Below, piece after piece: positions 3,091 through 17,819 of a stretch of 22,905 nt of DNA. The first letter of the stretch is position 1; each line of letters opens with the position of its first letter. Position numbers and translations under genes: made by a program. The notes under the pieces are model-generated. The model made no database searches. It was given only the letters and a program-made list of their open reading frames with translations, and was not told the DNA's origin. Origin of the DNA: a virus (lineage: Duplodnaviria > Heunggongvirae > Uroviricota > Caudoviricetes); IMG/VR virus record IMGVR_UViG_2571042690_000020. One strand, written 5' to 3'.

Positions 3091-3410
3091 TCGTTCCTCT
3101 CCTTCACCCTGCGATCAAATATTGCAATAACCTTGTCGCGTGCTTTCTCTGCGCCCATAAAACCGATTGAGGCACCAAAAAACGTCACTGCATCCTCAGG
3201 GATCCCGAAGAAGCGCAGCGACCCGGCCACGGCCATGGCAAGAACGCCGCACGCCAGCGATCCCGTTACGGTCTGAACCAGTGTTCGTCCGTCATAAAGA
3301 CTCATCAGCGCGGAAATGCTGACCGCCGCGCCTACTGCATACACCGTTGGCAGGTGGTCAAAGAGCCACGCAATAACCTGCTCTGTGATCCCTGTTTGAA
3401 TGGTGCTCAC
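3087..3410 (-). CDS. Holin (HP1/P2-region holin family, multi-TM)
   Basis: Hydrophobic segments (AVGAAVSISALM, GSLACGVLAMAVAGSL, FFGASIGFMGA) and a charged C-terminus, immediately upstream of the endolysin. GTG start at 3410 with a GGGGGGAG RBS, just after the X stop; an ATG further in is an alternative. The part of the 3087..3629 ORF overlapping X is rejected. Confidence 0.55.
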   Translation of the reverse strand: MSTIQTGITEQVIAWLFDHLPTVYAVGAAVSISALMSLYDGRTLVQTVTGSLACGVLAMAVAGSLRFFGIPEDAVTFFGASIGFMGAEKARDKVIAIFDRRVKERNE

Positions 3411-3412
3411 TG

Positions 3413-3619
3413 CTACTCCCCCCACAACTGAATCATTTCTCGTTTCTTCTTCTCCGGCTCCGGCATCTCCACTTCCTGCCCGGCGTCCAGAAATACCTGC
3501 TGACAGAGTCCGGGGTTGGCATCCAGCACCTTTTCGGTGACGCCCTGTGTCGTGCCGTAGTACCGGAAACAGAGCGAATCCACGGTGTCGCCTTCCAGTG
3601 CCTTCACTTTCATCAGCAC
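3413..3619 (-). CDS. X: Tail protein X (P2 gpX-like)
   Basis: 68 aa (MLMKVKALEGDTVDSLCFRYYG...) at the P2 gpX position between L and the holin. Confidence 0.8.
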   Translation of the reverse strand: MLMKVKALEGDTVDSLCFRYYGTTQGVTEKVLDANPGLCQQVFLDAGQEVEMPEPEKKKREMIQLWGE

Positions 3620-4208: not shown

Positions 4209-5009
4209 TTAACCGCGCTTTGCCTTCTGCGTCGCGGTGGTTTTTCGTGTTGCAGGCTTCCGCGTTGTCTTTTTACTTTTGCTGCTTTCGTCCTGCGCCT
4301 GCTGTGCGCTGGCGTCTTCTGGTTCGGCTGCGGAATCGGCTTTTTTCAGGGCGCGGGAAAGGGTTGCAATCTCGCGTTTCACACCTGCGTTCGGGTTCAG
4401 GTGCATCGCTTCGCGCAGCAGCTTCAGTGATGAGGCCATGTTGTCTGCATCGGTCAGGCCACGACGGGCAAAGGCACACGCCTTGCATAATTTGGCGCGC
4501 ACTTCGTCCGGCATGTCCTGGTTGGCGATAATTTCCCAAAGTGTGTCCAGTGGTTCGATAAAGGCGGATAAATCCGCGTCGGCATCCGTCCCAGCCTGCG
4601 TCAGTACCGGGTTGCAGATTTCTTCGGTCAGTACCGTGGCAGCAGTACGGCCAAAGTTATCCGGCATGATGAGGTTGTGACGGACCACATATGCACCAAT
4701 ACGCAGCGCCAGCGGAAGATCGCCGCAGTCAATCGCCCACACCATCAGCGTGGCAATTACTTCGTCCTGTTGCCCGCCGTCAGCCTCCAGCGTTCCCTCA
4801 ATCCAGCCGGAAAAGTCCGGCAACAACTCTTTTTTGATGGCGGCTTTCGCGCTTCTGGCCTGTATGGCCTTTAGCCTGGCCTGTGCCAGACGCAGACGAT
4901 ACAGCACCTCTTCATGCGCGGTACACGCGGCGTGGTCCACACCTTCATTCGCCCGGCCTGCGCGCTGTGCCATCACGTTCTGCCAGTGTTGTTGTGCAGG
5001 AGTAATCAT
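4209..5009 (-). CDS. M: Terminase endonuclease (small) subunit (P2 gpM-like)
   Basis: 266 aa with a basic Lys/Thr-rich C-terminal tail, located between N and L. Confidence 0.8.
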   Translation of the reverse strand: MITPAQQHWQNVMAQRAGRANEGVDHAACTAHEEVLYRLRLAQARLKAIQARSAKAAIKKELLPDFSGWIEGTLEADGGQQDEVIATLMVWAIDCGDLPLALRIGAYVVRHNLIMPDNFGRTAATVLTEEICNPVLTQAGTDADADLSAFIEPLDTLWEIIANQDMPDEVRAKLCKACAFARRGLTDADNMASSLKLLREAMHLNPNAGVKREIATLSRALKKADSAAEPEDASAQQAQDESSKSKKTTRKPATRKTTATQKAKRG

Positions 5010-7121: not shown

Positions 7122-8873
7122 ATGATTCAGGACGCTTTTGTGCGCCAGCGTGCGCGGCAACTTTACTGGCAGGGTTATCCGCCCGCAGAAATATCACGTC
7201 TGATGGGAATAAACCCGAACACGATTTATGCGTGGAAAAAACGTGACCAGTGGGATGAAACGCCACCCGTGCAGCGTGTCACGCAGTCCATCGATGCGCG
7301 CCTCATCCAGCTTACTGAAAAACAGAATAAAACAGGCGGTGACTTTAAGGAAATAGACCTGCTGACCCGGCAGCTTAAAAAGCTGCATGATGGCCAGCCG
7401 GATGTGATGGCCGCAGGAAAGAAAGGCCGGGCGAAAAAACTCAAAAATCATTTCACGCCGGAACAGATTGCCGCACTGCGGGAAAAAATCATCAGCAGGC
7501 TGGAGTGGCATCAGCGGGGCTGGTTTGACTCCCTGACCCTTTGCAGGGAAGCCGGGATACGTAACAGGATGATCCTGAAATCCCGACAGATTGGGGCGAC
7601 CTGGTATTTTGCACAGGAAGCACTGCTGATGGCGCTGCGTGACGATGTGGCGCAACCTTACCAGCGTAACCAGATTTTTTTGTCTGCGTCGCGTCGTCAG
7701 GCGTTCCAGTTTAAAAGCATTATTCAGAAGGCCGCGGCTGAAGTTGATGTGGAGCTGAAAGGGGGCGATAAAATCATCCTCTCCAACGGCGCAGAGCTGC
7801 ATTTTCTCGGCACTTCTGCTGCGTCGGCACAGTCCTATACGGGCAATTTTTATTTTGATGAATTTTTCTGGGTCAGTCGCTTTGCTGAACTGCGCAAGGT
7901 GGCTGGCGCTATGGCAACCCTCAGCGGACTGCGGCGCACCTACTTCTCCACGCCATCCACCGAAACGCACGAGGCATACGCCTACTGGAACGGCGACCGC
8001 TGGAACGAGAAAAAGGCCTCGCATAAACGCCAGCGTTTTTCTGTGGACTGGAAAACGCTGCATAATGGGCTTATCTGCCCTGACCGGACGTGGCGGCAAA
8101 TTGTCACGCTGGAAGATGTGGTTAATCACGGCTGGAAACACACCGATATCGACGAAATTCGTGATGAAAACACCGAAGACGAGTTCCTCAATCTCTATAT
8201 GTGTGAGTTTGTCCGCGAAGGGGAATCGGCATTTAACCTGAATATCCTGATTGGCTGCGGTGTTGACGGATACGACGACTGGAAAGACTGGAAACCTTTT
8301 GCTCCCCGCCCGATGGGGAATCGTCCGGTATGGATTGGGTATGACGCAAACGGCAGTAGTGGCAACGGCGACAGCGGCGCTGTGTCCGTGGTGGTTCCTC
8401 CGGCTGTTCCTGGCGGCCGTTTTCGAACGGTGGAGACGCGACGCGTTCAGGGGCTGGAGTTTGAAGAACAGGCCAGAGTCATTGAAGAGTTCACGTGTCG
8501 CTACAACGTGGAACACATCGGCATTGATGTGACGGGCGGGAACGGGGAGGCTGTTTATCAGATAGTGAAGCGGTTTTTCCCTGCTGCTATTCCGTACACC
8601 TTCACGCTGTCATCAAAACGGTCGCTGGTACTGAAAATGCTGCAAATAATGCGTGCCGGGCGGTGGGAATACGATCGCGCCGAACGCGAGCTGGTCGCGG
8701 CCTTTAACGCCGTGCGTAAGGTGAAAACACCGGGCGGCTTTATCACTTACGAAACGGACCGCGCGAGGGGGATCAGCCACGGCGACCTTGCGTGGGCAAC
8801 CATGCTTGCTGTCATTAACGAACCAATTGGCGGCGAAGGAGAAAACGAGCGTTTCATGGTTATGGAGTTCTGA
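7122..8873 (+). CDS. P: Terminase ATPase (large) subunit (P2 gpP-like)
   Basis: 583-aa ORF upstream of and overlapping the portal gene; size and synteny match P2 gpP. Confidence 0.9.
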   Translation: MIQDAFVRQRARQLYWQGYPPAEISRLMGINPNTIYAWKKRDQWDETPPVQRVTQSIDARLIQLTEKQNKTGGDFKEIDLLTRQLKKLHDGQPDVMAAGKKGRAKKLKNHFTPEQIAALREKIISRLEWHQRGWFDSLTLCREAGIRNRMILKSRQIGATWYFAQEALLMALRDDVAQPYQRNQIFLSASRRQAFQFKSIIQKAAAEVDVELKGGDKIILSNGAELHFLGTSAASAQSYTGNFYFDEFFWVSRFAELRKVAGAMATLSGLRRTYFSTPSTETHEAYAYWNGDRWNEKKASHKRQRFSVDWKTLHNGLICPDRTWRQIVTLEDVVNHGWKHTDIDEIRDENTEDEFLNLYMCEFVREGESAFNLNILIGCGVDGYDDWKDWKPFAPRPMGNRPVWIGYDANGSSGNGDSGAVSVVVPPAVPGGRFRTVETRRVQGLEFEEQARVIEEFTCRYNVEHIGIDVTGGNGEAVYQIVKRFFPAAIPYTFTLSSKRSLVLKMLQIMRAGRWEYDRAERELVAAFNAVRKVKTPGGFITYETDRARGISHGDLAWATMLAVINEPIGGEGENERFMVMEF

Positions 8874-9919
8874 TGAGCAGAAAAAATAAAAAAGTGCGCA
8901 TGAGTTCACGCATTGATCTCGCTGATGCGCTCAGGAAAGAATCATCGCTCAGTGCATTCACATTTGATGGTCCTTATCGCCTGACCGGGCATGACCTGCT
9001 GGACAATATGTACTGTGCTGATAACGGGCGGTGGTATGAAACCCCGGTGGACTGGTACGGTCTGGCAAGAGCAGCCCGGCAAACGTCCTGGCATCAGTCT
9101 GCGCTTTACTTTAAGCGCAATGTATTACTCGGTTGCTACATCCCGCACCCGCTGCTTTCCCGGCAGGATTTCTCGGCGCTGGCGCTGGACTGGTTTGTGT
9201 TCGGTAACGCATTCCTTGAGCTTCGAAGCAATATGCTCGGCGAACCGCTTAAATTACGGCACGCCCTGGCGAAATACATGCGACGCGGAAGCGATCTTGA
9301 ATCATGGTGGTATGTGCAGGATGGCAAGGACGCGTTTCAGTTTCGTCCTGGCAAAGTGTGCCACCTGATGAATCCGGATATTAACCAGGAAATCTACGGC
9401 ATGCCGGAATATCTTGGCGCATTACTCTCGGCCAGCCTTTCTCATTCGGCGGACATGTTCAGAAAACTGTACTACGACAACGGATCCCACGCCGGGTGCA
9501 TCATCTACATCGGTGCAGCGCAGGTAAACCGCGAAAGCATGGACTCCCTGAAAGAAACGCTACAGGGGGCACGTGGTGGTGGTGCGTTTAAAAACGTGCT
9601 CATTCATGCGCCCAACGGGGGCAAAGAGGGGGTGCAAATTTTGCCGTTCCAGCAGATCACCGCAAAAGATGAATTCATGAATGTTAAGGCGGCATCCCGT
9701 GATGATGTGCTGGCTGCGCACCGCGTTCCGCCGCAACTGATGGGGGCGATGCCGGGCGAAAAAAGTGCGTTTGGCGATGTGGAGAAGGCAGCGCGGGTTT
9801 ACGCAATTAACGAGCTGATGCCCGTTATGGAGGCTATGAAGCACATCAATGACTGGCTTGGCGAAGAGGTGATCCGTTTTAACTCTTATGCTCTTCTTGA
9901 TGAAAAAACAGCCCCGTGA
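8873..9919 (+). CDS. Q: Portal protein (P2 gpQ-like)
   Basis: 348-aa ORF whose start overlaps the terminase stop (TGATG), as in the P2 PQ operon. Confidence 0.85.
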   Translation: MSRKNKKVRMSSRIDLADALRKESSLSAFTFDGPYRLTGHDLLDNMYCADNGRWYETPVDWYGLARAARQTSWHQSALYFKRNVLLGCYIPHPLLSRQDFSALALDWFVFGNAFLELRSNMLGEPLKLRHALAKYMRRGSDLESWWYVQDGKDAFQFRPGKVCHLMNPDINQEIYGMPEYLGALLSASLSHSADMFRKLYYDNGSHAGCIIYIGAAQVNRESMDSLKETLQGARGGGAFKNVLIHAPNGGKEGVQILPFQQITAKDEFMNVKAASRDDVLAAHRVPPQLMGAMPGEKSAFGDVEKAARVYAINELMPVMEAMKHINDWLGEEVIRFNSYALLDEKTAP

Positions 9920-9935
9920 TGGGGCTGTCCTTTTT
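9903..9935. terminator. Bidirectional intrinsic terminator between convergent genes
   Basis: AAAAA-ACAGCCCC-GTGAT-GGGGCTGT-CCTTTTT: an 8-bp GC-rich stem flanked by an A-run and a T-run. The portal stop codon lies in the loop. Confidence 0.6.
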
Positions 9936-10458
9936 ACCAGAGTTGAACCATTTTCTGGGTGCCGTCAGGCTTGAGATTATCAATTTCAGAGAGAACGTAA
10001 TATTGAATGGCTTCACAAACGGTGGTGTAGGGTGAATTACCTTCTTTAAGTGGCACGATATTATTATTAACGCGAACCTGTATTTCATCGTTATACATTG
10101 CGATCGAAACAGGAGTGTGCACGAACGCGACTTCGCCAGGTGTGTCGTCAACCACCGTTTCAATACTAAAAGTCAGTTTTCGCTCATCATTGCTGCCCCG
10201 TGCTTTGGGGGTAGCGGCAGGGATCTGGGATAAAGGCATTCTGCGAAATCCTTCGGCTGCTTCCAGTCCGCATGAAACGTAATGCTGGCGATTACCGTCG
10301 CTATCTGTCCAGGTCTGTGATGGCAGCTCCAGCGAGATTTCATAAGCATCAACAATGCCCTGGGCAAGGCGTACAAGCGGGGTCAGATCTTCATTGCGGC
10401 GAAAGCTCTCCTTTACCTGCTCCCGTTTTTCTCTTAACTGCTTGTAATTAATGACCAT
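9934..10458 (-). CDS. Hypothetical cargo protein (unknown function)
   Basis: 174-aa ORF from an internal ATG at 10458 with a GGAGG RBS (the ORF-track start at 10497 lacks one). Convergent with the portal gene, in the position P2 uses for accessory genes such as old/tin. Confidence 0.55.
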   Translation of the reverse strand: MVINYKQLREKREQVKESFRRNEDLTPLVRLAQGIVDAYEISLELPSQTWTDSDGNRQHYVSCGLEAAEGFRRMPLSQIPAATPKARGSNDERKLTFSIETVVDDTPGEVAFVHTPVSIAMYNDEIQVRVNNNIVPLKEGNSPYTTVCEAIQYYVLSEIDNLKPDGTQKMVQLW

Positions 10459-10558
10459 AAGACAGCCTCCATTGATTTCTTTGCTCGTATTTTGCACTTA
10501 TGAAGTATGGTCGGCAAGGTGCCGTATCGCTGACGCGCTTCGCTTGTCTGCTGCTTCG

Positions 10559-10585
10559 CCGGGGCATAAAAAATTTATGCCCCGG
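10559..10585. repeat. Perfect 27-bp palindrome CCGGGGCATAAA-AAA-TTTATGCCCCGG
   Basis: 12-bp perfect inverted arms around a 3-bp centre, about 100 bp upstream of the 9934..10458 gene start. No flanking T-run, so not a classic terminator. Confidence 0.5.
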
Positions 10586-10956
10586 CTCTCCAGCTCCTGT
10601 ATCAATCAGATAATTTCACGACGCCTTCCAGTTTATCGCCACCATCGACGGTCAGACTCTTACGCAATTCCACCGCGTTGACTGCATGTTCTCGCTGCCT
10701 CAGTGCGATTTTGACGGCCTTACCTTTCACCCCATCAAATCAAAAGCCCTCACGCCTTTTTCATGCTCAGCGTGAGAAATATGGCCATTCTGTTGTGTCT
10801 CTGCGACATCGTTCAGGGAATGCTATTTACCCCCTGAAACGCGGGCTGTTCCCCCGTCACCTGCGCGCAGAAAAAGCGCGTTTTTTTGTGCACGCACGGA
10901 TCCTTGACGGATCCAGCCGCCATGCGGGCCGGAAGGGTAAAAAGTCGTTCAAAAAA

Positions 10957-10984
10957 ATTGTGCAAATTTGTGCACTTTTGTGCA
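10957..10984. promoter_or_regulatory. Three phased copies of (A/T)TTGTGCA at 10-bp spacing
   Basis: ATTGTGCA, TTTGTGCA and TTTGTGCA begin at 10957, 10967 and 10977, one helical turn apart, upstream of a TTGACC -35-like hexamer at 11004-11009. Candidate operator or activator array. Confidence 0.35.
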
Positions 10985-11084
10985 GGTAAGCATGCCTATA
11001 TATTTGACCGTGGCTTGCCTTTGATGTAGTTTATACGTCACAAAAACCACAAAACGTGGTTATGATTTCTATGAGGGGGTTGAT

Positions 11085-11120
11085 ATGAAAAAAATGTATG
11101 ATGAATTTGATGGTTTCTAA
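11085..11120 (+). CDS. Candidate 11-codon leader peptide (MKKMYDEFDGF)
   Basis: GAGGGGG RBS five nt upstream of the ATG. The stop sits 19 nt before an intrinsic terminator and about 60 nt before the first operon gene. Confidence 0.3.
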   Translation: MKKMYDEFDGF

Positions 11121-11139
11121 GCTACGTTGACCTCTAATG

Positions 11140-11168
11140 AGGCGGGGATTTGCTCCCCGCCTTTTTTA
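11140..11168 (+). terminator. Intrinsic terminator/attenuator hairpin
   Basis: AGGCGGGGA-TTTGC-TCCCCGCCT followed by TTTTTT, ending 13 nt before the ATG at 11182. Confidence 0.6.
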
Positions 11169-11181
11169 TGGATGAAATAGG

Positions 11182-11679
11182 ATGAACCCAATAACACTAC
11201 AAATCATCAGCAATGCTATTGTTCTGCTTGGCGTTTTGGTTGCCATTGGAACCATTATCTACAATGTGCGTACCGCAAAAAAAACTCAAACGGCCAACTT
11301 TCTTTTTGAGAGTCGGCAAGATATGCAATATATAGAGTCATTGCATACCCTGAAACAAGTGCATCGTTCAGGCAAATCATTTCGTTCTTATGTTTTTCCT
11401 TGTGATGGTTGCATAATAACAGATGAAGAAATGGCCGAGCGTCGAAAATTTCAATATATTTTAAATTTTTACGAGCGAGTTGCTGTAAGTATTCGTGAAG
11501 GTATTTATGATGAAAAAATGATAAAAAGAACATCTTACACAACAGTTGTAGAGACATATGATATTGCCGAGCCATTAATTAAAGCAATCAGAGAAAGCAT
11601 TAATTCGGATACTACATATCAAGAATTCGAATGGTTAGTAAGAAGATGGAAAGCTAATCCTTTACGGAAAAACAAATAA
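11182..11679 (+). CDS. Hypothetical membrane-anchored protein (N-terminal TM helix, ~140-aa soluble domain)
   Basis: 165-aa ORF. Residues 5-27 are hydrophobic (TLQIISNAIVLLGVLVAIGTIIY). Markedly AT-rich coding sequence compared with the flanking phage genes. Confidence 0.6.
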   Translation: MNPITLQIISNAIVLLGVLVAIGTIIYNVRTAKKTQTANFLFESRQDMQYIESLHTLKQVHRSGKSFRSYVFPCDGCIITDEEMAERRKFQYILNFYERVAVSIREGIYDEKMIKRTSYTTVVETYDIAEPLIKAIRESINSDTTYQEFEWLVRRWKANPLRKNK

Positions 11680-11718
11680 TGTTTTACCCTTTAATTTACA
11701 AGTAACACAGGGGGAAGT

Positions 11719-12561
11719 GTGACACAGAATCCGTTTTCATTTTATGACTTTTTGGGCTATCTAATTCCAGGTGGGTTATTCCTGTTTATCCTTTTTTTGT
11801 TTTCTATTGAAATTAACCCTGTTTATATAGAAGGTATTCTTAACCATATCCTGAAATATAAAGAAATAATAAGTGTATTTATATATGTGGTATTAATCGT
11901 TCTATCATATATTTCAGGTCACTTCATATCTATTCTATCATCCTGTTTAATTGAAAAATACATGAACAGTAAACTTGGGTATCCTTCAATTTATCTGTTT
12001 TCTAAAAGAAGCTCCCTGAAAATAAAACGACATAATACTAAGTTCAGTATAGTTAATTTTATTCGTGGAGTTTTTTTATTTCCTGTATCAGCTTTTGATA
12101 AAGCAGAACATCATAAAACCACACTGCATTCTATACTTATTAAAGTCTTTTGGCCGCAAATACGAGATGGTTATATAAATGTTTTTTCTGTATCTACGCT
12201 ATATCGACGTAAGGGCTTGAGGGGCGATCTTTTTCGCCTTGCTTATCATTATGTGTATGAACATTCTAAAAATCATCAGGTGAAAATGCAAAACTATGTT
12301 GCTTTGTATGGTTTTTGTAGAAACATTACATTTGTTTTTCTCGCTTCAGTCTGGTTGCTTATGTTCCTGCTCCTTCTATCCTTTTTAATAGATATAAATA
12401 TCAGACTGTTACCTTTTTGTTTTCTTCTCTTGTTTTGTATTGCTGCATCCCGAGTATTTTATTATGGTTTTGTTAAGTATTATCGCCGCTATTCTCTTGA
12501 GGTTTTAATGGCATTTGCGGTACTTCAGCACGATAAAAAAACTTCGGCAATTTCATCATGA
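11719..12561 (+). CDS. Hypothetical polytopic inner-membrane protein (4-5 predicted TM segments)
   Basis: 280-aa ORF with a GTG start and AGGGGGA RBS, 39 nt after the preceding gene. Several long hydrophobic segments (FLGYLIPGGLFLFILFLF, IISVFIYVVLIVLSYISGHFISIL, ITFVFLASVWLLMFLLLLSFLI, LLPFCFLLLFCIAASRVFYYGF). Very AT-rich. Confidence 0.6.
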   Translation: MTQNPFSFYDFLGYLIPGGLFLFILFLFSIEINPVYIEGILNHILKYKEIISVFIYVVLIVLSYISGHFISILSSCLIEKYMNSKLGYPSIYLFSKRSSLKIKRHNTKFSIVNFIRGVFLFPVSAFDKAEHHKTTLHSILIKVFWPQIRDGYINVFSVSTLYRRKGLRGDLFRLAYHYVYEHSKNHQVKMQNYVALYGFCRNITFVFLASVWLLMFLLLLSFLIDINIRLLPFCFLLLFCIAASRVFYYGFVKYYRRYSLEVLMAFAVLQHDKKTSAISS

Positions 12562-12571
12562 TTTGAAACAT

Positions 12572-12597
12572 TGGCACCCTGTTAGCAAGGGTGCCAG
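12572..12597. terminator. Hairpin between convergent membrane operon and parR (putative terminator)
   Basis: GGCACCCT-GTTAGCA-AGGGTGCC, an 8-bp stem lying between the two convergent 3' ends. No strong T-run. Confidence 0.35.
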
Positions 12598-12644
12598 AAT
12601 GATGTGTTGGTCTGTATTTTATTAGTTCACATACAATTATCAGA

Positions 12645-12959
12645 TTATTCTGGGAATAAGGTCTGAATATTCTTTTTTATTTTATAAAAATTGCATTCAA
12701 CTCCGCTAGGCTGATTATCCTGGTATGTTTCCTTGATGCTAACGGTATTGAAGGGGAGGTTGTCCTCTGGCCATTCGGCCATCCAGTAGGCAAATGCTGG
12801 GTTGCGCTTTATGAGCGCTAGCCCAGCCAGAAAGGCCGCGCGTTGCGCGCGGCTGCGTTCGGAGGCTGGCAGGCTATCGAGGTAATTGCACGCCTCCTGT
12901 TCACTCTTGACGGCGGCGGGCTTCAGATAGAAACTTATCCGTCTGGTTGGTGTCGTCAT
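12645..12959 (-). CDS. parR: ParR-like centromere-binding protein (ribbon-helix-helix adaptor)
   Basis: Internal ATG at 12959 with an AAGGAG RBS, 5 nt after the parM stop. The N-terminus (RISFYLKPAAVKSEQEACNYLDSLPASERSRAQRAAFLAGLAL) resembles plasmid R1 ParR as I recall it. Confidence 0.6.
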   Translation of the reverse strand: MTTPTRRISFYLKPAAVKSEQEACNYLDSLPASERSRAQRAAFLAGLALIKRNPAFAYWMAEWPEDNLPFNTVSIKETYQDNQPSGVECNFYKIKKNIQTLFPE

Positions 12960-12963
12960 TGGT

Positions 12964-13923
12964 TTACTCCTTGTCCATTGCGTACAGCCCATTAACCAGA
13001 GCAAACTGTGGCACCCCGTCCGCGATGAAAGTCGCATTAACTCCGCAGACTTCGCGGATAGCGGGTGCCACAATCTCCGCCCCTCCACCGACAACCATCA
13101 CCCGCCCGTAACCCGAAAAAACCGCCAGCGCGCGGATCACGCGTTGTTTCAGTGTTTCTTCCTTTTCACGAATAACCGCCATCAGGCTGGCGTAATGCGC
13201 GTCATTGTGGATGTGCTGGCGCAGCCAGGCTTCATCATGGCGATGTTCGATAATGGTATTGGCGATGTGGTGACTGGTGCGCATACCGTTAGTGGCCATC
13301 ACCGACAGTACGGCATCGGCCATCAGGGAAACGCCTACGTGTGGATCGCAAAACACCTGGCTGATACCTGCCAGTTGCCCTTGAACCTTTGCCACATCCA
13401 GCGTGGTTCCGCCTAAATCCACAATCAGCAGGGATTCAAACGGACTCATGTCAGCCAGTGCTTTAAAGCCAGCCGGAATGGATTCAGGCATAACCCGCAC
13501 GTTACGGATAGTGAATGCTTCGCCGTTCTGGTATTCCACCGGGCGCATAACGTTCGCTTTTTTGCGGTTGATGTTGGCCATGTCCGGCTGTGCGTTTGTG
13601 TCGAAATACTCGCTCAGTGGCAGGGTGACAACCACATCCACCTCCTGTGGCGTGATGCCTGATTTGACCAGCGCGTGATGAATGGCGATTACATTCACAT
13701 CGCTGTACTGGTATTGCGTGTCGGTCGTCTGGACAAAGCGATCGCTAACCGGATCAAAACCATAGCGCACGCCATCAAGCATGTAGTTCGCGGGCTGCAT
13801 GCCACCGAACGGCGCAGACCATTCCGACTTGAAGCTGTTCGGGCTGATGGCGTTGCGGCGTTCGCCATTCTCAGTCCATGCCAGCTTGATGTTGGTGGAG
13901 CCGTCGTCGATACAAATTTTCAT
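12964..13923 (-). CDS. parM: ParM/StbA-family actin-like segregation ATPase
   Basis: 319 aa. The N-terminus (MKICIDDGSTNIKLAW...ISPNSFKSEW...YSDVNVIAIHHAL...VDVVVTLPL) tracks my recollection of plasmid R1 ParM closely, including the phosphate-binding DDGSTN block. Confidence 0.8.
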   Translation of the reverse strand: MKICIDDGSTNIKLAWTENGERRNAISPNSFKSEWSAPFGGMQPANYMLDGVRYGFDPVSDRFVQTTDTQYQYSDVNVIAIHHALVKSGITPQEVDVVVTLPLSEYFDTNAQPDMANINRKKANVMRPVEYQNGEAFTIRNVRVMPESIPAGFKALADMSPFESLLIVDLGGTTLDVAKVQGQLAGISQVFCDPHVGVSLMADAVLSVMATNGMRTSHHIANTIIEHRHDEAWLRQHIHNDAHYASLMAVIREKEETLKQRVIRALAVFSGYGRVMVVGGGAEIVAPAIREVCGVNATFIADGVPQFALVNGLYAMDKE

Positions 13924-13999: not shown

Positions 14000-16822
14000 T
14001 CATATATCGCTGCGCGTTTTTTGCTCATTTACGGGATTCGTAAGTCCCGTTTCTGTCTGTTTTTTGTTTCCACTGGTCAGGCCACCCCGCAGCAGGTCTG
14101 CTTTGCGGCTGGCGCGTTCAGTGGTTTCACTGATTCTCTGTGCGTGCTCTGCGTCGCGGATGGCGCGCAGCATGTCAGAAAGCACGGTAACGGGTGTTTT
14201 CATGGTGTTCTGGCCCTGCTGAAGTGTGGATGCCAGGCGTGCGGCGGCTTCAGGGTCTGATGCCCCCAGCTGTGCCAGATAGCTGGCGACCGGGTTATGG
14301 CGGATCTCCGTGCTGCTTACGCCATGATTACGGCTCAGGCGCTGCCAGAGCTGCGTGATTCGGCTGTCCGGGCGGGTATCCGGTTTGCGTACAATTTCAA
14401 ATCCCTGCGGTGCAATGATGCTGCCGTCAACGTACAGACTGCCGCCCCGTAACAGGTGCTGCATCTGTTGTTCACCGATATGCAGGCCGAGAGATTCAGC
14501 AGACTCCCGCCATTCTTTAGCGAGTAATTCGTGGTTATCAGGCAAAGGCCGCTGCTGTTTGCGGCTCTGTGTCCAGCTCTGCATTTCATCGCTGCTGTTT
14601 TTTGCCTGTTTGTCACGAAGCGAACGCATCAGCGCCCGGCGTTCGTGTCGTTTCAGTGAGCGCATCCATTCGTTCACTTCAACGCCGTCAGGGAGCTGCG
14701 GCCACGGTGCTGGCCGTTCTTCCGGCTGTTCTGTCCCGTTGTTGTCCGTTTCCTGTACACGGGGACAGTTATTGCCACGAGTCCAAGGGGCGGCAGGGCC
14801 GCCCTGAAGGTCAAAACCATTTTCGCGGGCGCTGTCTTCCGCTTCCGGTTTACGTCTTACCAGCTTCCAGTTATCCGGATGCGTGCACACACGGGAGGAT
14901 TCCCCGATGAGTGGTGACCAGATCCCGTAAATCTGTACGCTCTGTTCGCCGTAATCGTTCAGCTCATCTGCGAGGTCGTAGGCGGTGCGAATCAGGTAGT
15001 CCTTGCGTGGAACAAGCACGCCACCCTGTTTTTCAATGTAGGTGGCAAAACACCCGGCATCGGCGGCAGCGAGTACCGCATCCATTGCATCATCTTTCAG
15101 CCGTTGCGGGCCTTCCGGATTGCGTGCCATCTGGCTGGCAAGGCGGCGCAGTTCACGCCACACCTGACGGGAGGGGATGCCAAAGAACTGGAACTGACGG
15201 ACCCGGTGAAGGCGCGCCCAGCCGATGGCGCGCTCCACGCTCTCGGCCATTGATTTTCCGGTTTCGTGGTCCACGCGTGGCTTGCCCGTTTTCGGGTCGA
15301 TGCCATCCACGGCGCGGCTGTCCAGGTTCTTTCCGATGTAGGTGGCGATGTAGCTGGTTGGCGTGCCTTTTGAGCCGTCGACATACTCCACCTTAAAGCG
15401 CGGAGTAATATCATTGCCCAGCTCGTGGCGGTCTTCCTGAATGGCAATATCGCGGGTATGGGACACAATGGTGTCGATTTCTTCCGGATGTGCAAAGACC
15501 ATCATATGCCAGTGCACGGTGCCGTCATGATGAGGCTCCACCGTGCGGATGCCATACCAGCGCAGGCCGTCGCGGTTCAGTTTTTTGCGGACCGCCGCAA
15601 AAAACGTGTTAACCAGGTAATCGCTGGAGTCGCGCATTGTGGCCCCGTTCCATTTGGGATTCGGATGACCGTTCTCCGTTGTGGCGTGGTATTTTGACGG
15701 GCAGGTGACAGTCAGAAACACCGCTTTGTCGCCACGGGCTTCGGCCAGAAGTTCCAGTCCCTTCATGGTGGCCATCATTTCTGCCTTACGGTGAACCGGG
15801 TTACTTACTCCCGCGTAATACACTGTCTCGAGATCAATCGTGAACCCGTCTTCATTTTCCAGCATGAAACTTTTCAGGAAATCGCGTGTTTTCTCGCGCT
15901 GTGCGCGAAACTCGCTTAACGCGTCCTGGCTCAGATAGGGTGATGTTTTTCTGGAAACCAGACAGGCGGCGCGGAGTTGTTCTTCTCTCCACTCGCAACG
16001 TAACAGCCACAGTTTGCGTTTCCACCATTCCGCACAGGTCAGGCGAAGGATTGCGCCCGGCAGCAGCTCCGTGTCCGGTTCGTTCCTCCGGTCTTTGTCT
16101 GTTGTCAGTGCGTCATAATGTGGAGGCATGGCGTGCAGGTGTAACGCCATGCGGGCCAGCATCTGATACGCCTTCAGGGTTACATCCATGGTCAGCTCGC
16201 CATCGGTCGCGCCAAAGCCATCGCAGAGTTTTTCGAAGGTGCTGCTGAACATCGCCGCCGTCATGGTGGCCAGCGTCTGTATCTGGTGTTTGTTGAGCTG
16301 CGGCAGGTAAAGCAAATCGTCCAGGCGTTCGCGTCCGGCAAGGGAGCGATAACCCGGTGTCAGCCAGCGTCCGTCAGTGCTATCCAGACGTTCGAATATT
16401 TTGCGCAGGGTTCCGCGTGCATAGCGTTCCGCCTGCCAGCTCTTTTTGCCTTTCCGGCGATCGGCTTCCTGTTTTTTGCGCAGGAAGGAGAGGTGGCGAA
16501 TAAGCGGATCGCGCAGATAGGACGGCAGCAGGCGCAGCGAGGCCATGGCTTCATCCACCGCGCCACGTGCCTGTTTTCTGGCGTCTCCTGCCAGTGTGAT
16601 GGTTTTGTCCTGTTTTTCCTGTGCGTCCAGGCTTTTATTAATCAGGTTGCCCAGCGGCGTGGCTGAGAACGCCGCATCAGCCATTTCCTGGCGGCGCTCG
16701 TTCTCTGCCCGGTAGGCATCCAGCCAGGAGGAAAGCGCGGATTCAGGAGCGGGGATCCCCGTTCCTTCACGCCCCACTGCGTGGCGCGGTTGTTGCCAGT
16801 CCCTGAGGTACTCTGCCGTCAT
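14000..16822 (-). CDS. A: Replication initiation endonuclease (P2 gpA-like HUH rolling-circle protein)
   Basis: 940-aa ORF with an HUH-type metal motif (TVHWHMMVFAH) and a YIATYIGKN catalytic-tyrosine block, downstream of the early operon as in P2/186. Confidence 0.85.
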   Translation of the reverse strand: MTAEYLRDWQQPRHAVGREGTGIPAPESALSSWLDAYRAENERRQEMADAAFSATPLGNLINKSLDAQEKQDKTITLAGDARKQARGAVDEAMASLRLLPSYLRDPLIRHLSFLRKKQEADRRKGKKSWQAERYARGTLRKIFERLDSTDGRWLTPGYRSLAGRERLDDLLYLPQLNKHQIQTLATMTAAMFSSTFEKLCDGFGATDGELTMDVTLKAYQMLARMALHLHAMPPHYDALTTDKDRRNEPDTELLPGAILRLTCAEWWKRKLWLLRCEWREEQLRAACLVSRKTSPYLSQDALSEFRAQREKTRDFLKSFMLENEDGFTIDLETVYYAGVSNPVHRKAEMMATMKGLELLAEARGDKAVFLTVTCPSKYHATTENGHPNPKWNGATMRDSSDYLVNTFFAAVRKKLNRDGLRWYGIRTVEPHHDGTVHWHMMVFAHPEEIDTIVSHTRDIAIQEDRHELGNDITPRFKVEYVDGSKGTPTSYIATYIGKNLDSRAVDGIDPKTGKPRVDHETGKSMAESVERAIGWARLHRVRQFQFFGIPSRQVWRELRRLASQMARNPEGPQRLKDDAMDAVLAAADAGCFATYIEKQGGVLVPRKDYLIRTAYDLADELNDYGEQSVQIYGIWSPLIGESSRVCTHPDNWKLVRRKPEAEDSARENGFDLQGGPAAPWTRGNNCPRVQETDNNGTEQPEERPAPWPQLPDGVEVNEWMRSLKRHERRALMRSLRDKQAKNSSDEMQSWTQSRKQQRPLPDNHELLAKEWRESAESLGLHIGEQQMQHLLRGGSLYVDGSIIAPQGFEIVRKPDTRPDSRITQLWQRLSRNHGVSSTEIRHNPVASYLAQLGASDPEAAARLASTLQQGQNTMKTPVTVLSDMLRAIRDAEHAQRISETTERASRKADLLRGGLTSGNKKQTETGLTNPVNEQKTRSDI
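14027..14066. repeat. Copy 2 of ~41-bp element, inside the 3' end of gene A
   Basis: CATTTACGGGATTCGTAAGTCCCGTTTCTGTCTGTTTTTTG, overlapping the last ~22 codons of A. Confidence 0.5.
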
Positions 16823-17497: not shown

Positions 17498-17676
17498 GGT
17501 GTGGCCCCTTGTGTAGTAAGTTGTGAAAACTCACCATCCAGAGCTGCGAAACTGTGGGTGGCGAGACGTACGAGGTTCGCAGTACCGGCTACACAAGAAC
17601 CCGGCCCGACCGAAGTCGGCCCCGTACGCCCCGCCATAATTCTGACGCGAAAAAAACGTGGCAATACAGTACGCAC

Positions 17677-17698
17677 AAAAAAACCGCTGGCGCGGTTG
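17677..17698 (-). terminator. Intrinsic terminator (minus strand) downstream of the 17820..18119 gene
   Basis: On the minus strand the region reads AACCGC-GCCA-GCGGTT followed by TTTTTTTT. Confidence 0.45.
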
Positions 17699-17819
17699 TG
17701 CGCTTGTGTAGTCAGCAGGCTGCGAAACCCGGCACCCGTTTTATGAGGTGCAGCGGAAATGTAACCTGACTGATTGCGGCATGGCAAGCGGTTTTTTTGT
17801 GTGTGCATGCTCTGGTTTC

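Follow-up and report, generated by a model that had tools for sequence, protein, structure and literature searches.

What is encoded in the short segment between the packaging site and the first cargo gene of a P2-like prophage, and does it act as a single regulatory unit? We addressed this question for positions 10957-11181 of IMG/VR virus record IMGVR_UViG_2571042690_000020, a 22,905-nt stretch of DNA that was analyzed as a whole and is called the window here. The window is a P88-type (Xuanwuvirus), P2-like prophage, whose region 9900-12600 is 100% identical to E. coli prophage records, including those of ST131. An earlier note had described the segment as one attenuator-like leader, and every element it listed is found in the sequence: three TTGTGCA copies 10 bp apart, a TTGACC hexamer, an inverted repeat, a ribosome-binding site with a short upstream open reading frame (ORF), and a hairpin with a T-run. 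The segment is, however, not one attenuator but two unrelated modules, the repeats of a cos packaging site (10957-10984) and the leader of a cargo gene of the DUF4760 family (10985-11181). This fixes the border between conserved backbone and swappable cargo at 10984/10985, and sets apart a packaging signal and a cargo leader, which are easily taken for one when the sequence is read. In our best reading of the leader, judged from sequence conservation, its 11-codon mini-ORF would encode a micro-peptide partner of the DUF4760 protein.

The leader and the gene that it precedes contain the following features, in which SD stands for the Shine-Dalgarno sequence.

11004-11032, plus strand: sigma-70 promoter, TTGACC (11004-11009), a 17-nt spacer and TAGTTT (11027-11032), with a predicted start at about 11039-11040.
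11045-11061, plus strand: 5' stem-loop AACCAC-AAAAC-GTGGTT, at about +6 to +22 of the transcript.
11073-11120, plus strand: SD GAGGGGG (11073-11079) and mini-ORF from ATG at 11085 to TAA at 11120, encoding MKKMYDEFDGF; conserved and codon-periodic.
11126-11135, plus strand: anti-SD segment GUUGACCUCU, predicted to pair with 11075-11084 and thereby to enclose the mini-ORF.
11139-11167, plus strand: intrinsic terminator GAGGCGGGGA-TTTGC-TCCCCGCCTT followed by T6, identified by hairpin scan, folding and covariation.
11170-11679, plus strand: SD-like GGATGA, within the conserved ATGGATGAA, and the DUF4760 gene (11182-11679, ATG at 11182, 165 amino acids; Pfam PF15956, E = 1.8e-34).

The evidence that the leader is a real element is good. 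The earlier note had recognized a -35-like hexamer, a short ORF and a strong terminator before the first cargo gene; they form a genuine transcription unit with a promoter, each part of which is conserved in distant relatives. A degenerate pattern search for MKKx[YF]DEFDGF-stop found the ORF in Escherichia, Klebsiella, Citrobacter, Atlantibacter and Xenorhabdus, where a hairpin and a T-run always follow and the downstream gene is usually a DUF4760 gene 77-88% identical to that of the window. Using an alignment of DUF4760, we fetched 160 loci spanning 24-100% identity, and the motif mini-ORF in its strict form was present in 68 of the 88 unique DUF4760 upstream regions. Control sequences gave no such number (none in reverse complements, 0/81 in far-upstream regions, 0/83 in downstream regions and a mean of 0.64 in shuffles), and the other 20 upstream regions mostly hold variants, for example with a GTG start, DENDGY-stop or EGWDV-stop. 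Across the family the motif drifts from DEFDGF in enterobacteria to EEFDGF, DEFEGF, DEYEGV, DEYDWF and DEFEWV, and then to EGWDG, EGWDF and EGWEV in the most distant homologues. A related mini-ORF precedes almost every member of the DUF4760 family, down to about 25% identity. In homologues that are about 25-33% identical, the peptide gene lacks a terminator and lies immediately before the DUF4760 start or overlaps it, at -1 to about +29 nt. The arrangement is also seen in cultured phages: Acinetobacter phage BUCTT20 has ...MNEGWDF-stop, then a hairpin and then DUF4760, and the mini-ORF of Alteromonas phage P24 reads MNLRDGWDDI-stop.

The pattern of substitution indicates what is being conserved. 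Among 42 unique sequences, the last six codons are near-invariant at positions 1 and 2 (entropy 0 at most sites, maximum 0.65 bit) and have an entropy of 0.9-1.8 bits at position 3; the fourth codon is free. This invariance of positions 1 and 2, together with the free position 3, indicates that the peptide is translated and under purifying selection, and conservation at the amino-acid level covers its last six residues and the stop codon. Since the motif is conserved throughout the family, even where no terminator is present, the peptide appears to have a role of its own, as a partner or through its sequence as a nascent chain, rather than that of a generic attenuator leader with regulatory codons.

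The module also occurs in other arrangements. Promoter, mini-ORF and terminator stand alone, intact and with no DUF4760 gene after them, in four Xenorhabdus contigs (L028, L036, L037 and L041), where convergent genes come next, and on plasmid pCREC783_47k (L012, 2501-2667), where a 33-codon hydrophobic ORF begins at an ATG right after the T-run. One locus (L056) carries two different DUF4760 modules in the same orientation about 1.2 kb apart (1386-1968 and 3178-3468), each with a mini-ORF (MKKWFDEFDGF-stop and MKKFDEYEGV-stop) and a terminator of its own. Another locus (L073) and about 41 E. coli genomes hold a DUF4760 module of about 52% identity, with MRKFDEYEGV-stop and a hairpin of the ACGGGGCC type, beside BRO-N/antirepressor genes in another prophage context; the module therefore moves between phage types. 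The leader matched no Rfam family at the gathering threshold or at E values up to 10, where matches were at chance level. Neither the mini-ORF nor its link to DUF4760 is covered by an Rfam family or a PADLOC or NCBIfam model, and the literature on DUF4760 and on the peptide motifs gave no relevant result. The micro-peptide gene preceding the DUF4760 relatives thus appears to be previously undescribed, a gene family missed by annotation pipelines that offers a first functional handle on the widespread DUF4760 family.

The mini-ORF is followed by a strong terminator. The hairpin (11139-11163) has 10 bp, seven of them G-C, and a 5-nt loop, with T6 at 11162-11167; the earlier note was right in placing the T-run close to the gene, although it ends 14 nt and not 13 nt before the ATG. 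The fold has a predicted energy of -19.4 kcal/mol (z = -4.1; 0 of 200 shuffles as stable), and terminator-like sites in the region number 8, against 2.6 expected. The order of mini-ORF, hairpin with T-run and start codon is kept in many lineages despite differing stem sequences (GGCGGGG, GGCGGAGA, GCGGAGC, ACGGGGCC and CGGAGGC). A covariance model built from 31 leaders gave 68 matches, and in the resulting alignment of 61 distinct leaders, which leans towards the model, 89.9% of the terminator cells are paired and both partners have changed in 10 of 10 pairs; the terminator scores 0.40 for covariation, compared with 0.165 in shuffles and at most 0.17 in slid controls. RNAalifold on a MAFFT alignment recovered only part of the terminator and nothing else, because hairpins of unequal length were misaligned there, which re-alignment with the covariance model corrected. 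In enterobacteria the helix between the SD and the anti-SD segment is predicted at -10 to -12.5 kcal/mol and has undergone G-to-A changes in both arms; its partners in relatives are GGGGGUUAAC and GUUAACCUCU. In the model-based alignment, 66% of its cells are paired and 9/9 pairs are changed on both sides. There is moderate support for this helix as a clade-specific feature. We rejected it as a universal one, as it is strong only in enterobacteria and averages -7.6 for native pairs against -6.0 for shuffled pairs.

An attenuator should offer an alternative to the terminator, and the earlier note had proposed RNA folding as a check. No antiterminator was found in truncated or constrained folds of the leader, in which the sole competitor was a 4-bp CCUC/GAGG pairing. 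The terminator has a pair probability of 0.999, the best terminator-free fold is 12 kcal/mol worse, and the hairpin still forms when 11070-11133 is masked as if covered by a ribosome. No run of regulatory codons is present in MKKMYDEFDGF, whose conserved feature is the D-E-F-D-G-F motif. Of the attenuator-like description, then, the anatomy of short ORF, terminator and gene stands, and the alternative structure and the regulatory codons do not. A phage-encoded antiterminator finds no backing in the ten early-region ORFs scanned with Pfam, none of which has a Q-type domain. The note had seen no room for a promoter between terminator and gene; neither inspection by eye, which gave no acceptable -35/-10 pair inside or after the hairpin, nor the scanner found one, so that DUF4760 would most simply be expressed by read-through.

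A natural mutant of the leader exists. In several E. coli strains and viral contigs (L005, E. coli LS4; L014, H1827/12; L027; L128), the IS4-family element IS421 lies within the terminator hairpin (about 11145-11157) and parts the promoter, the mini-ORF and the left arm from the right arm and DUF4760.

The leader promoter, TTGACC-17-TAGTTT, scores 8/12, just under the 9/12 cut-off of the scanner. The promoter that the scanner reported, GTCACA-18-TATGAT at 11037-11066, was rejected, as conservation in relatives is found only for TTGACC-17-TAGTTT. The form TTGAC[TACG]-17-TA[AG][TA]TT is conserved, at a near-constant distance to the mini-ORF, in the clade whose DUF4760 is at least 76% identical to the window protein, and also in Citrobacter and Xenorhabdus; it typically lies about 20 nt past the third cos repeat. 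From this conserved position we infer the transcription start given above and a terminated RNA of about 128 nt. In most relatives (e.g., L047, L051, L132 and L142), a perfect inverted repeat, ATTACC-N5-GGTAAT, which is operator-like, extends over the spacer and the -10 element (about 11010-11032); it has been lost in the window copy (TTGCC...GTAGT). The 5' stem covaries in relatives (ACCAC/GUGGU, UUCAC/GUGAA and GACUAC/GUAGUC), and in Alteromonas phage P24, ACCACA...TGTGGT stands immediately before the ribosome-binding site. It is possible that the inverted repeat at 11045-11061 acts as a DNA operator instead of an RNA stem-loop.

The downstream protein suggests what the peptide may do. In most lineages the T-run is followed by ATGGA(T/A)GAA, which is probably the SD of DUF4760 and is not sequestered in the predicted folds. 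An AlphaFold2 model of the protein (predicted local distance difference test score, pLDDT, 92) has a long N-terminal helix that includes a membrane segment and then a helical domain, and the modeled fold resembles the EP domain of plant EDS1/PAD4. PF15956 is the only Pfam match of the protein, and the top conserved motif of the family is ...YQEFEWLxxRW near the C-terminus. When the last six residues of each peptide were compared with its own partner, the best ungapped match fell on this QEFEWL motif in 49 of 68 loci (DEFDGF versus QEFEWL). The peptides DEFEWV and DEYDWF come closer still to QEFEWL, and DEYEGV peptides pair with KEYEWL proteins. These sequence likenesses suggest that the peptide mimics DUF4760's own C-terminal element. 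In the window the DUF4760 gene is followed by a second cargo gene.

11719-12561, plus strand: second cargo gene, 280 amino acids with a hydrophobic N-terminus, matching phrog_12528, to which no function is attached.

Only the E. coli version of the module pairs this gene with DUF4760, and the gene has a weak PADLOC match (E = 1e-5) to Csx27, a membrane protein associated with type VI-B CRISPR (clustered regularly interspaced short palindromic repeats) systems.

Positions 10985-11181 are the leader of a mobile DUF4760 cargo module that sits in a hotspot adjacent to cos. In the mechanism that we propose, the sigma-70 promoter would give rise to the RNA of about 128 nt with its 5' stem-loop, which would carry the translated 11-codon gene, with its peptide under selection, and then the strong terminator. 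Most transcripts would be expected to end at this terminator and to yield an abundant short mRNA for the peptide, and a minority would read through into DUF4760 and, in E. coli, into the second, putative membrane protein. The terminator would then be a constitutive leaky device that places the micro-peptide in large excess over its membrane-protein partner, and the QEFEWL-like tail of the peptide may bind or compete at the site of that motif, as an inhibitor or antitoxin-like partner. For the part of this proposal in which a constitutive leaky terminator sets a high ratio of peptide to DUF4760, we see an about even chance. Retention of the peptide without a terminator, the stand-alone modules and the lack of an antiterminator fit a peptide that is important in itself better than a generic attenuator.

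A design of this kind is known from microcin C, where mccA-mccB has a 7-codon ORF followed by an intrinsic terminator, and a 105-107-nt RNA exceeds read-through by about 20:1, so that the peptide outnumbers the enzymes (Zukher et al. 2014, PMC4231749). The window locus likewise has a tiny first ORF, of 11 codons instead of 7, and an intergenic intrinsic terminator, with a predicted RNA of about 128 nt. In contrast, upstream RNA masks the mcc terminator, which depends on ribosome binding, whereas the terminator of the window is predicted to form in any case; the gene that follows encodes a membrane-anchored helical DUF4760 protein and no MccB-type adenylating enzyme, with no sequence relationship between the two systems. 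If the peptide is a partner held in excess by a leaky terminator, the locus would represent a second, independent mccA-type design, in a place enriched for anti-phage systems. A broader model, which we regard as speculative and rather unlikely in its entirety, would make DUF4760 and the 7-12-residue peptides upstream of it (...DEFDGF, ...EGWDG) a widespread and unrecognised two-component module of prophages and mobile elements. The QEFEWL-mimic peptide would restrain a membrane protein resembling the EP domain of EDS1/PAD4, the leaky terminator would keep the peptide in excess in Proteobacteria, and loss of the peptide, for example through host shut-off by a phage, would release the protein; within the P2 defence hotspot the module would then work in the manner of an abortive-infection or toxin-antitoxin system.

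Several observations weigh against a peptide partner kept in excess. The likeness to QEFEWL spans only six residues and fails for the distant EGWD-type peptides, and it counts as about one observation because the lineages are not independent. DUF4760 has no PADLOC or NCBIfam match and only function-less families in PHROGs, which makes its role as a partner hypothetical. The stand-alone copies in Xenorhabdus could be recent leftovers of cargo swaps. In the STEC2018-553 prophage, where DUF4760 has been lost, the leader has decayed (ATG to ATA, hairpin broken), which suggests that the peptide is of little value alone. Moreover, an arrest peptide acting in cis would give the same conservation at the C-terminal end of the peptide. 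Such a conditional switch, along the lines of the earlier note, in which translation of the DEFDGF mini-ORF, ribosome stalling or a trans-acting factor decides on read-through and DUF4760 is made only under, for example, phage attack or translation stress, is in our view possible though doubtful. The leader-peptide attenuators trpL, hisL and pheL and the arrest leaders TnaC and Erm/Cat consist of a promoter, a short translated ORF, a terminator and a structural gene, and arrest peptides of the TnaC type are most highly conserved at their C-terminal end. The window shows the same order of elements in a classic geometry, with a short translated ORF, 18 nt, the terminator and the gene 14 nt further on; the gap of about 15-18 nt between stop codon and hairpin is conserved in most lineages, and the conservation of the peptide is concentrated at its C-terminus and stop codon, as in arrest peptides. 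A helix between the SD and the region after the stop codon would limit initiation at the mini-ORF to the time of transcription, and where the terminator is absent the stop codon of the mini-ORF overlaps the DUF4760 start, so that a stalled ribosome could gate initiation. The known leaders differ, however, in ways that matter here: the window has no mutually exclusive alternative hairpin, ribosome-like masking leaves its terminator in place, the peptide has no regulatory codon run, and the peptide motif travels with its partner gene across distant lineages, even without a terminator. Also unfavorable to a switch are the free SD of DUF4760 in the predicted folds, the absence of the SD:anti-SD helix from several clades that keep both peptide and terminator, the intact stand-alone modules with no gene to regulate, and the lack of a Q-like domain among the scanned early-region ORFs.

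Two further explanations would remove the need for a functional peptide, and we consider both very unlikely. The leader might be a functionless relic, namely the 3' end (...EFEWL...stop) and terminator of a former upstream tandem copy of DUF4760. Tandem DUF4760 modules do exist (L056), the tail of the peptide is QEFEWL-like, and the covariance model of the leader also matches the 3' end and terminator of distant DUF4760 genes (L107, L109 and L113). Given these matches and the tandem modules, the leader may have arisen from the 3' end of a gene; such a history may explain its origin but not its maintenance, as the full ORF with its own SD and start is under strong purifying selection over very large divergence. 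The mini-ORF also stops right after the motif, whereas the protein runs about 14 residues further, and the leader has a conserved promoter and 5' stem-loop of its own. Alternatively, the short terminated transcript might be a trans-acting regulatory small RNA in which the ORF is incidental. A 5' stem-loop, an internal helix and a terminator packed into some 128 nt would suit such a role (folding z = -2.6 for the leader RNA), but the 3-nt periodicity of substitutions shows that the peptide and not the RNA sequence is constrained, and the RNA matches no Rfam family. The micro-peptide partner thus remains our preferred reading of the leader.

The other part of the segment, the repeat block, lies at the end of a cos region with the following features.

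10843-10861, unstranded: probable cos core of 19 nt, GGGCTGTTCCCCCGTCACC, the counterpart of the P2 cohesive end by homology and architecture.
10863-10892, plus strand: cos-adjoining hairpin (10863-10881) with T-run, found by hairpin scan, then a proximal TTGTGCA whose TGCA core is at +28 from cos.
10957-10984, unstranded: three phased (A/T)TTGTGCA copies (10958-10964, 10968-10974 and 10978-10984), the distal repeat block of the cos packaging signal by position, and probable terminase-binding sites.

The triple with spacings of exactly 10 bp occurs once in the window and in 0/100 dinucleotide shuffles, even with 2 mismatches allowed, whereas the lone heptamer is not enriched (7 copies versus 6 expected). 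The proximal copy at 10886-10892 is a fourth one, which was absent from the earlier note's list. The cos core is identical to P2 cos in the matching orientation (GTGCTTTCCCCGCCTCGCC) at 13 of 19 bases, and an intermediate form, GCTTGCTCCCCCGCCTCGCC, which is clearly the P2 cohesive end in this orientation, occupies the equivalent place in Klebsiella and Xenorhabdus relatives. A GC hairpin with a T-run directly follows the core in each phage compared; in P2, P4 and 186 it takes the form of a hairpin, TTTT and AATGCA, with TGCA at +26. Measured from the cos end, the TGCA cores are at +28, +100, +110 and +120 in the window, P88 and the Citrobacter and Enterobacter phages, at +26, +98, +108 and +120 in P2, and at +26, +32, +98, +108 and +121 in P4 and 186. 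The window therefore shares with P2, 186 and P4 a GC-rich 19-nt core next to the portal gene, a hairpin with a T-run, a TGCA at +26/28 and three more at about +98-121; it differs in its unit, TTGTGCA spaced 10 + 10, where theirs is (A)ATGCA spaced 10 + 12-13. The block is an ordinary lineage variant of the known P2-family cos site. P2 and its satellite P4 have only the cos region in common (PMC9122126, PMC9594776), so that the conserved TGCA offsets in P4 argue strongly for the repeats being part of the packaging signal. Flanks beyond the 55-bp cos core are reported to boost transduction more than 1000-fold (PMC9594776), and papers that cite Ziermann & Calendar 1990 on these cos sites (PMC9122126, PMC9594776, PMC5247547) describe a conserved 55-bp cos region.

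Contrary to the earlier assignment to an attenuator leader, then, the repeats at 10957-10984 and the copy at 10886 are, by their position, right-flank repeat elements of the cos site, and they are kept in phages with a different next gene on the opposite strand. Homology to P88, 520873, 500465-2, 503458, Chuche and PhiR44_2 spans 10526-10984 and ends right after the third repeat; in P88, P88_4B11 and Enterobacter phage phiT5282H the repeats are followed by different sequence and opposite-strand genes, and in a Klebsiella P2-like element the match is confined to the repeat block. Position and conservation make phased binding sites for the terminase small subunit the most likely role of the repeats. 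The gpM homologue of the prophage is probably the minus-strand ORF at 4209-5009. The TGCA geometry common to P2, P4, 186 and P88-type phages is thus a candidate terminase recognition element, of use for P2/P4 cosmid design. An observation that speaks for more than packaging is that in P2 the third repeat (ATGCA) overlaps the -35 of the mapped old promoter, and a secondary transcriptional role of the repeats is therefore possible. Taken further, the repeats could be operator or activator sites on one helix face, at which a phage or host DNA-binding protein controls the leader promoter, in place of packaging or in addition to it. The 10-bp phasing and the end of the block 19 nt upstream of the -35 would suit this, as would the interval of 19-22 nt between third repeat and TTGAC in E. 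coli, Citrobacter and Xenorhabdus. We nevertheless hold it to be improbable, as P88, P88_4B11 and phiT5282H have the repeats at the same offset from cos with no adjoining outward gene or promoter, P4 keeps them behind the end of psu, and the constant offset is from cos and not from any promoter.

The position of the cos core itself was questioned by one record. P88_4B11 (L003/L004, NC_049391), the only linear record of the group, is cut at the equivalent of 10939/10940, 78 nt to the right of the core, and has a small deletion within the cos core. We rejected 10939/10940 as the cos site and chose 10843-10861, because the latter aligns with P2 cos and its flanking architecture matches; the cut could reflect misassembly where the DNA physically ends, or this assignment could miss the true ends.

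The cargo site corresponds to the cos-adjacent hotspot in the interval between gpQ (portal) and gpA (replication), as defined by Rousset et al. 2022 (PMC9122126). Within that publication, DUF4760 appears only in the locus table and is absent from the main text and the other supplementary files examined. The DUF4760 module resembles other P2-like hotspot cargo, such as old/tin in P2, in its position between gpQ and gpA and in an outward promoter just past the cos repeats, but differs from the known defence cargo of the hotspot in that DUF4760 has no PADLOC match. Because of this, and because its mention is confined to the locus table, an anti-phage role of DUF4760 is suggested by location only. 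Among 5,426 complete E. coli genomes, 342 gave a match to a 781-nt probe covering the repeat block, leader and DUF4760 gene (10940-11720), 280 with at least 80% query coverage; about 5% of complete E. coli genomes, ST131 included, carry the prophage.

The other genes that frame the cos region and the cargo are arranged as follows.

7122-8873, plus strand: terminase.
8873-9919, plus strand: portal.
9934-10497, minus strand: ORF of 187 amino acids (phrog_5091, no function attached), inserted between the portal gene and the cos region.
12645-13923, minus strand: actin-like segregation gene (ParM/StbA) and Plasmid_stab_B gene, which separate the cargo from the replication gene.
14000-16822, minus strand: replication endonuclease.

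The 187-amino-acid ORF (9934-10497) marks a second variable slot, a small one: conservation of the cos region starts right after the portal gene in P88 and several relatives, and the P88 cos core lies about 310 nt past the portal stop codon, whereas in the window this ORF stands in between. The presence of the ParM/StbA and Plasmid_stab_B genes suggests that P88-type phages can be maintained or partitioned in a plasmid-like manner. Above the gathering score, Rfam matches were found to C4 antisense RNA (83 bits; 17554-17641, minus strand) and to the Hfq-binding RNA isrK (65 bits; 17677-17751, minus strand), within or beside an Ash-family ORF of the prophage's early region.

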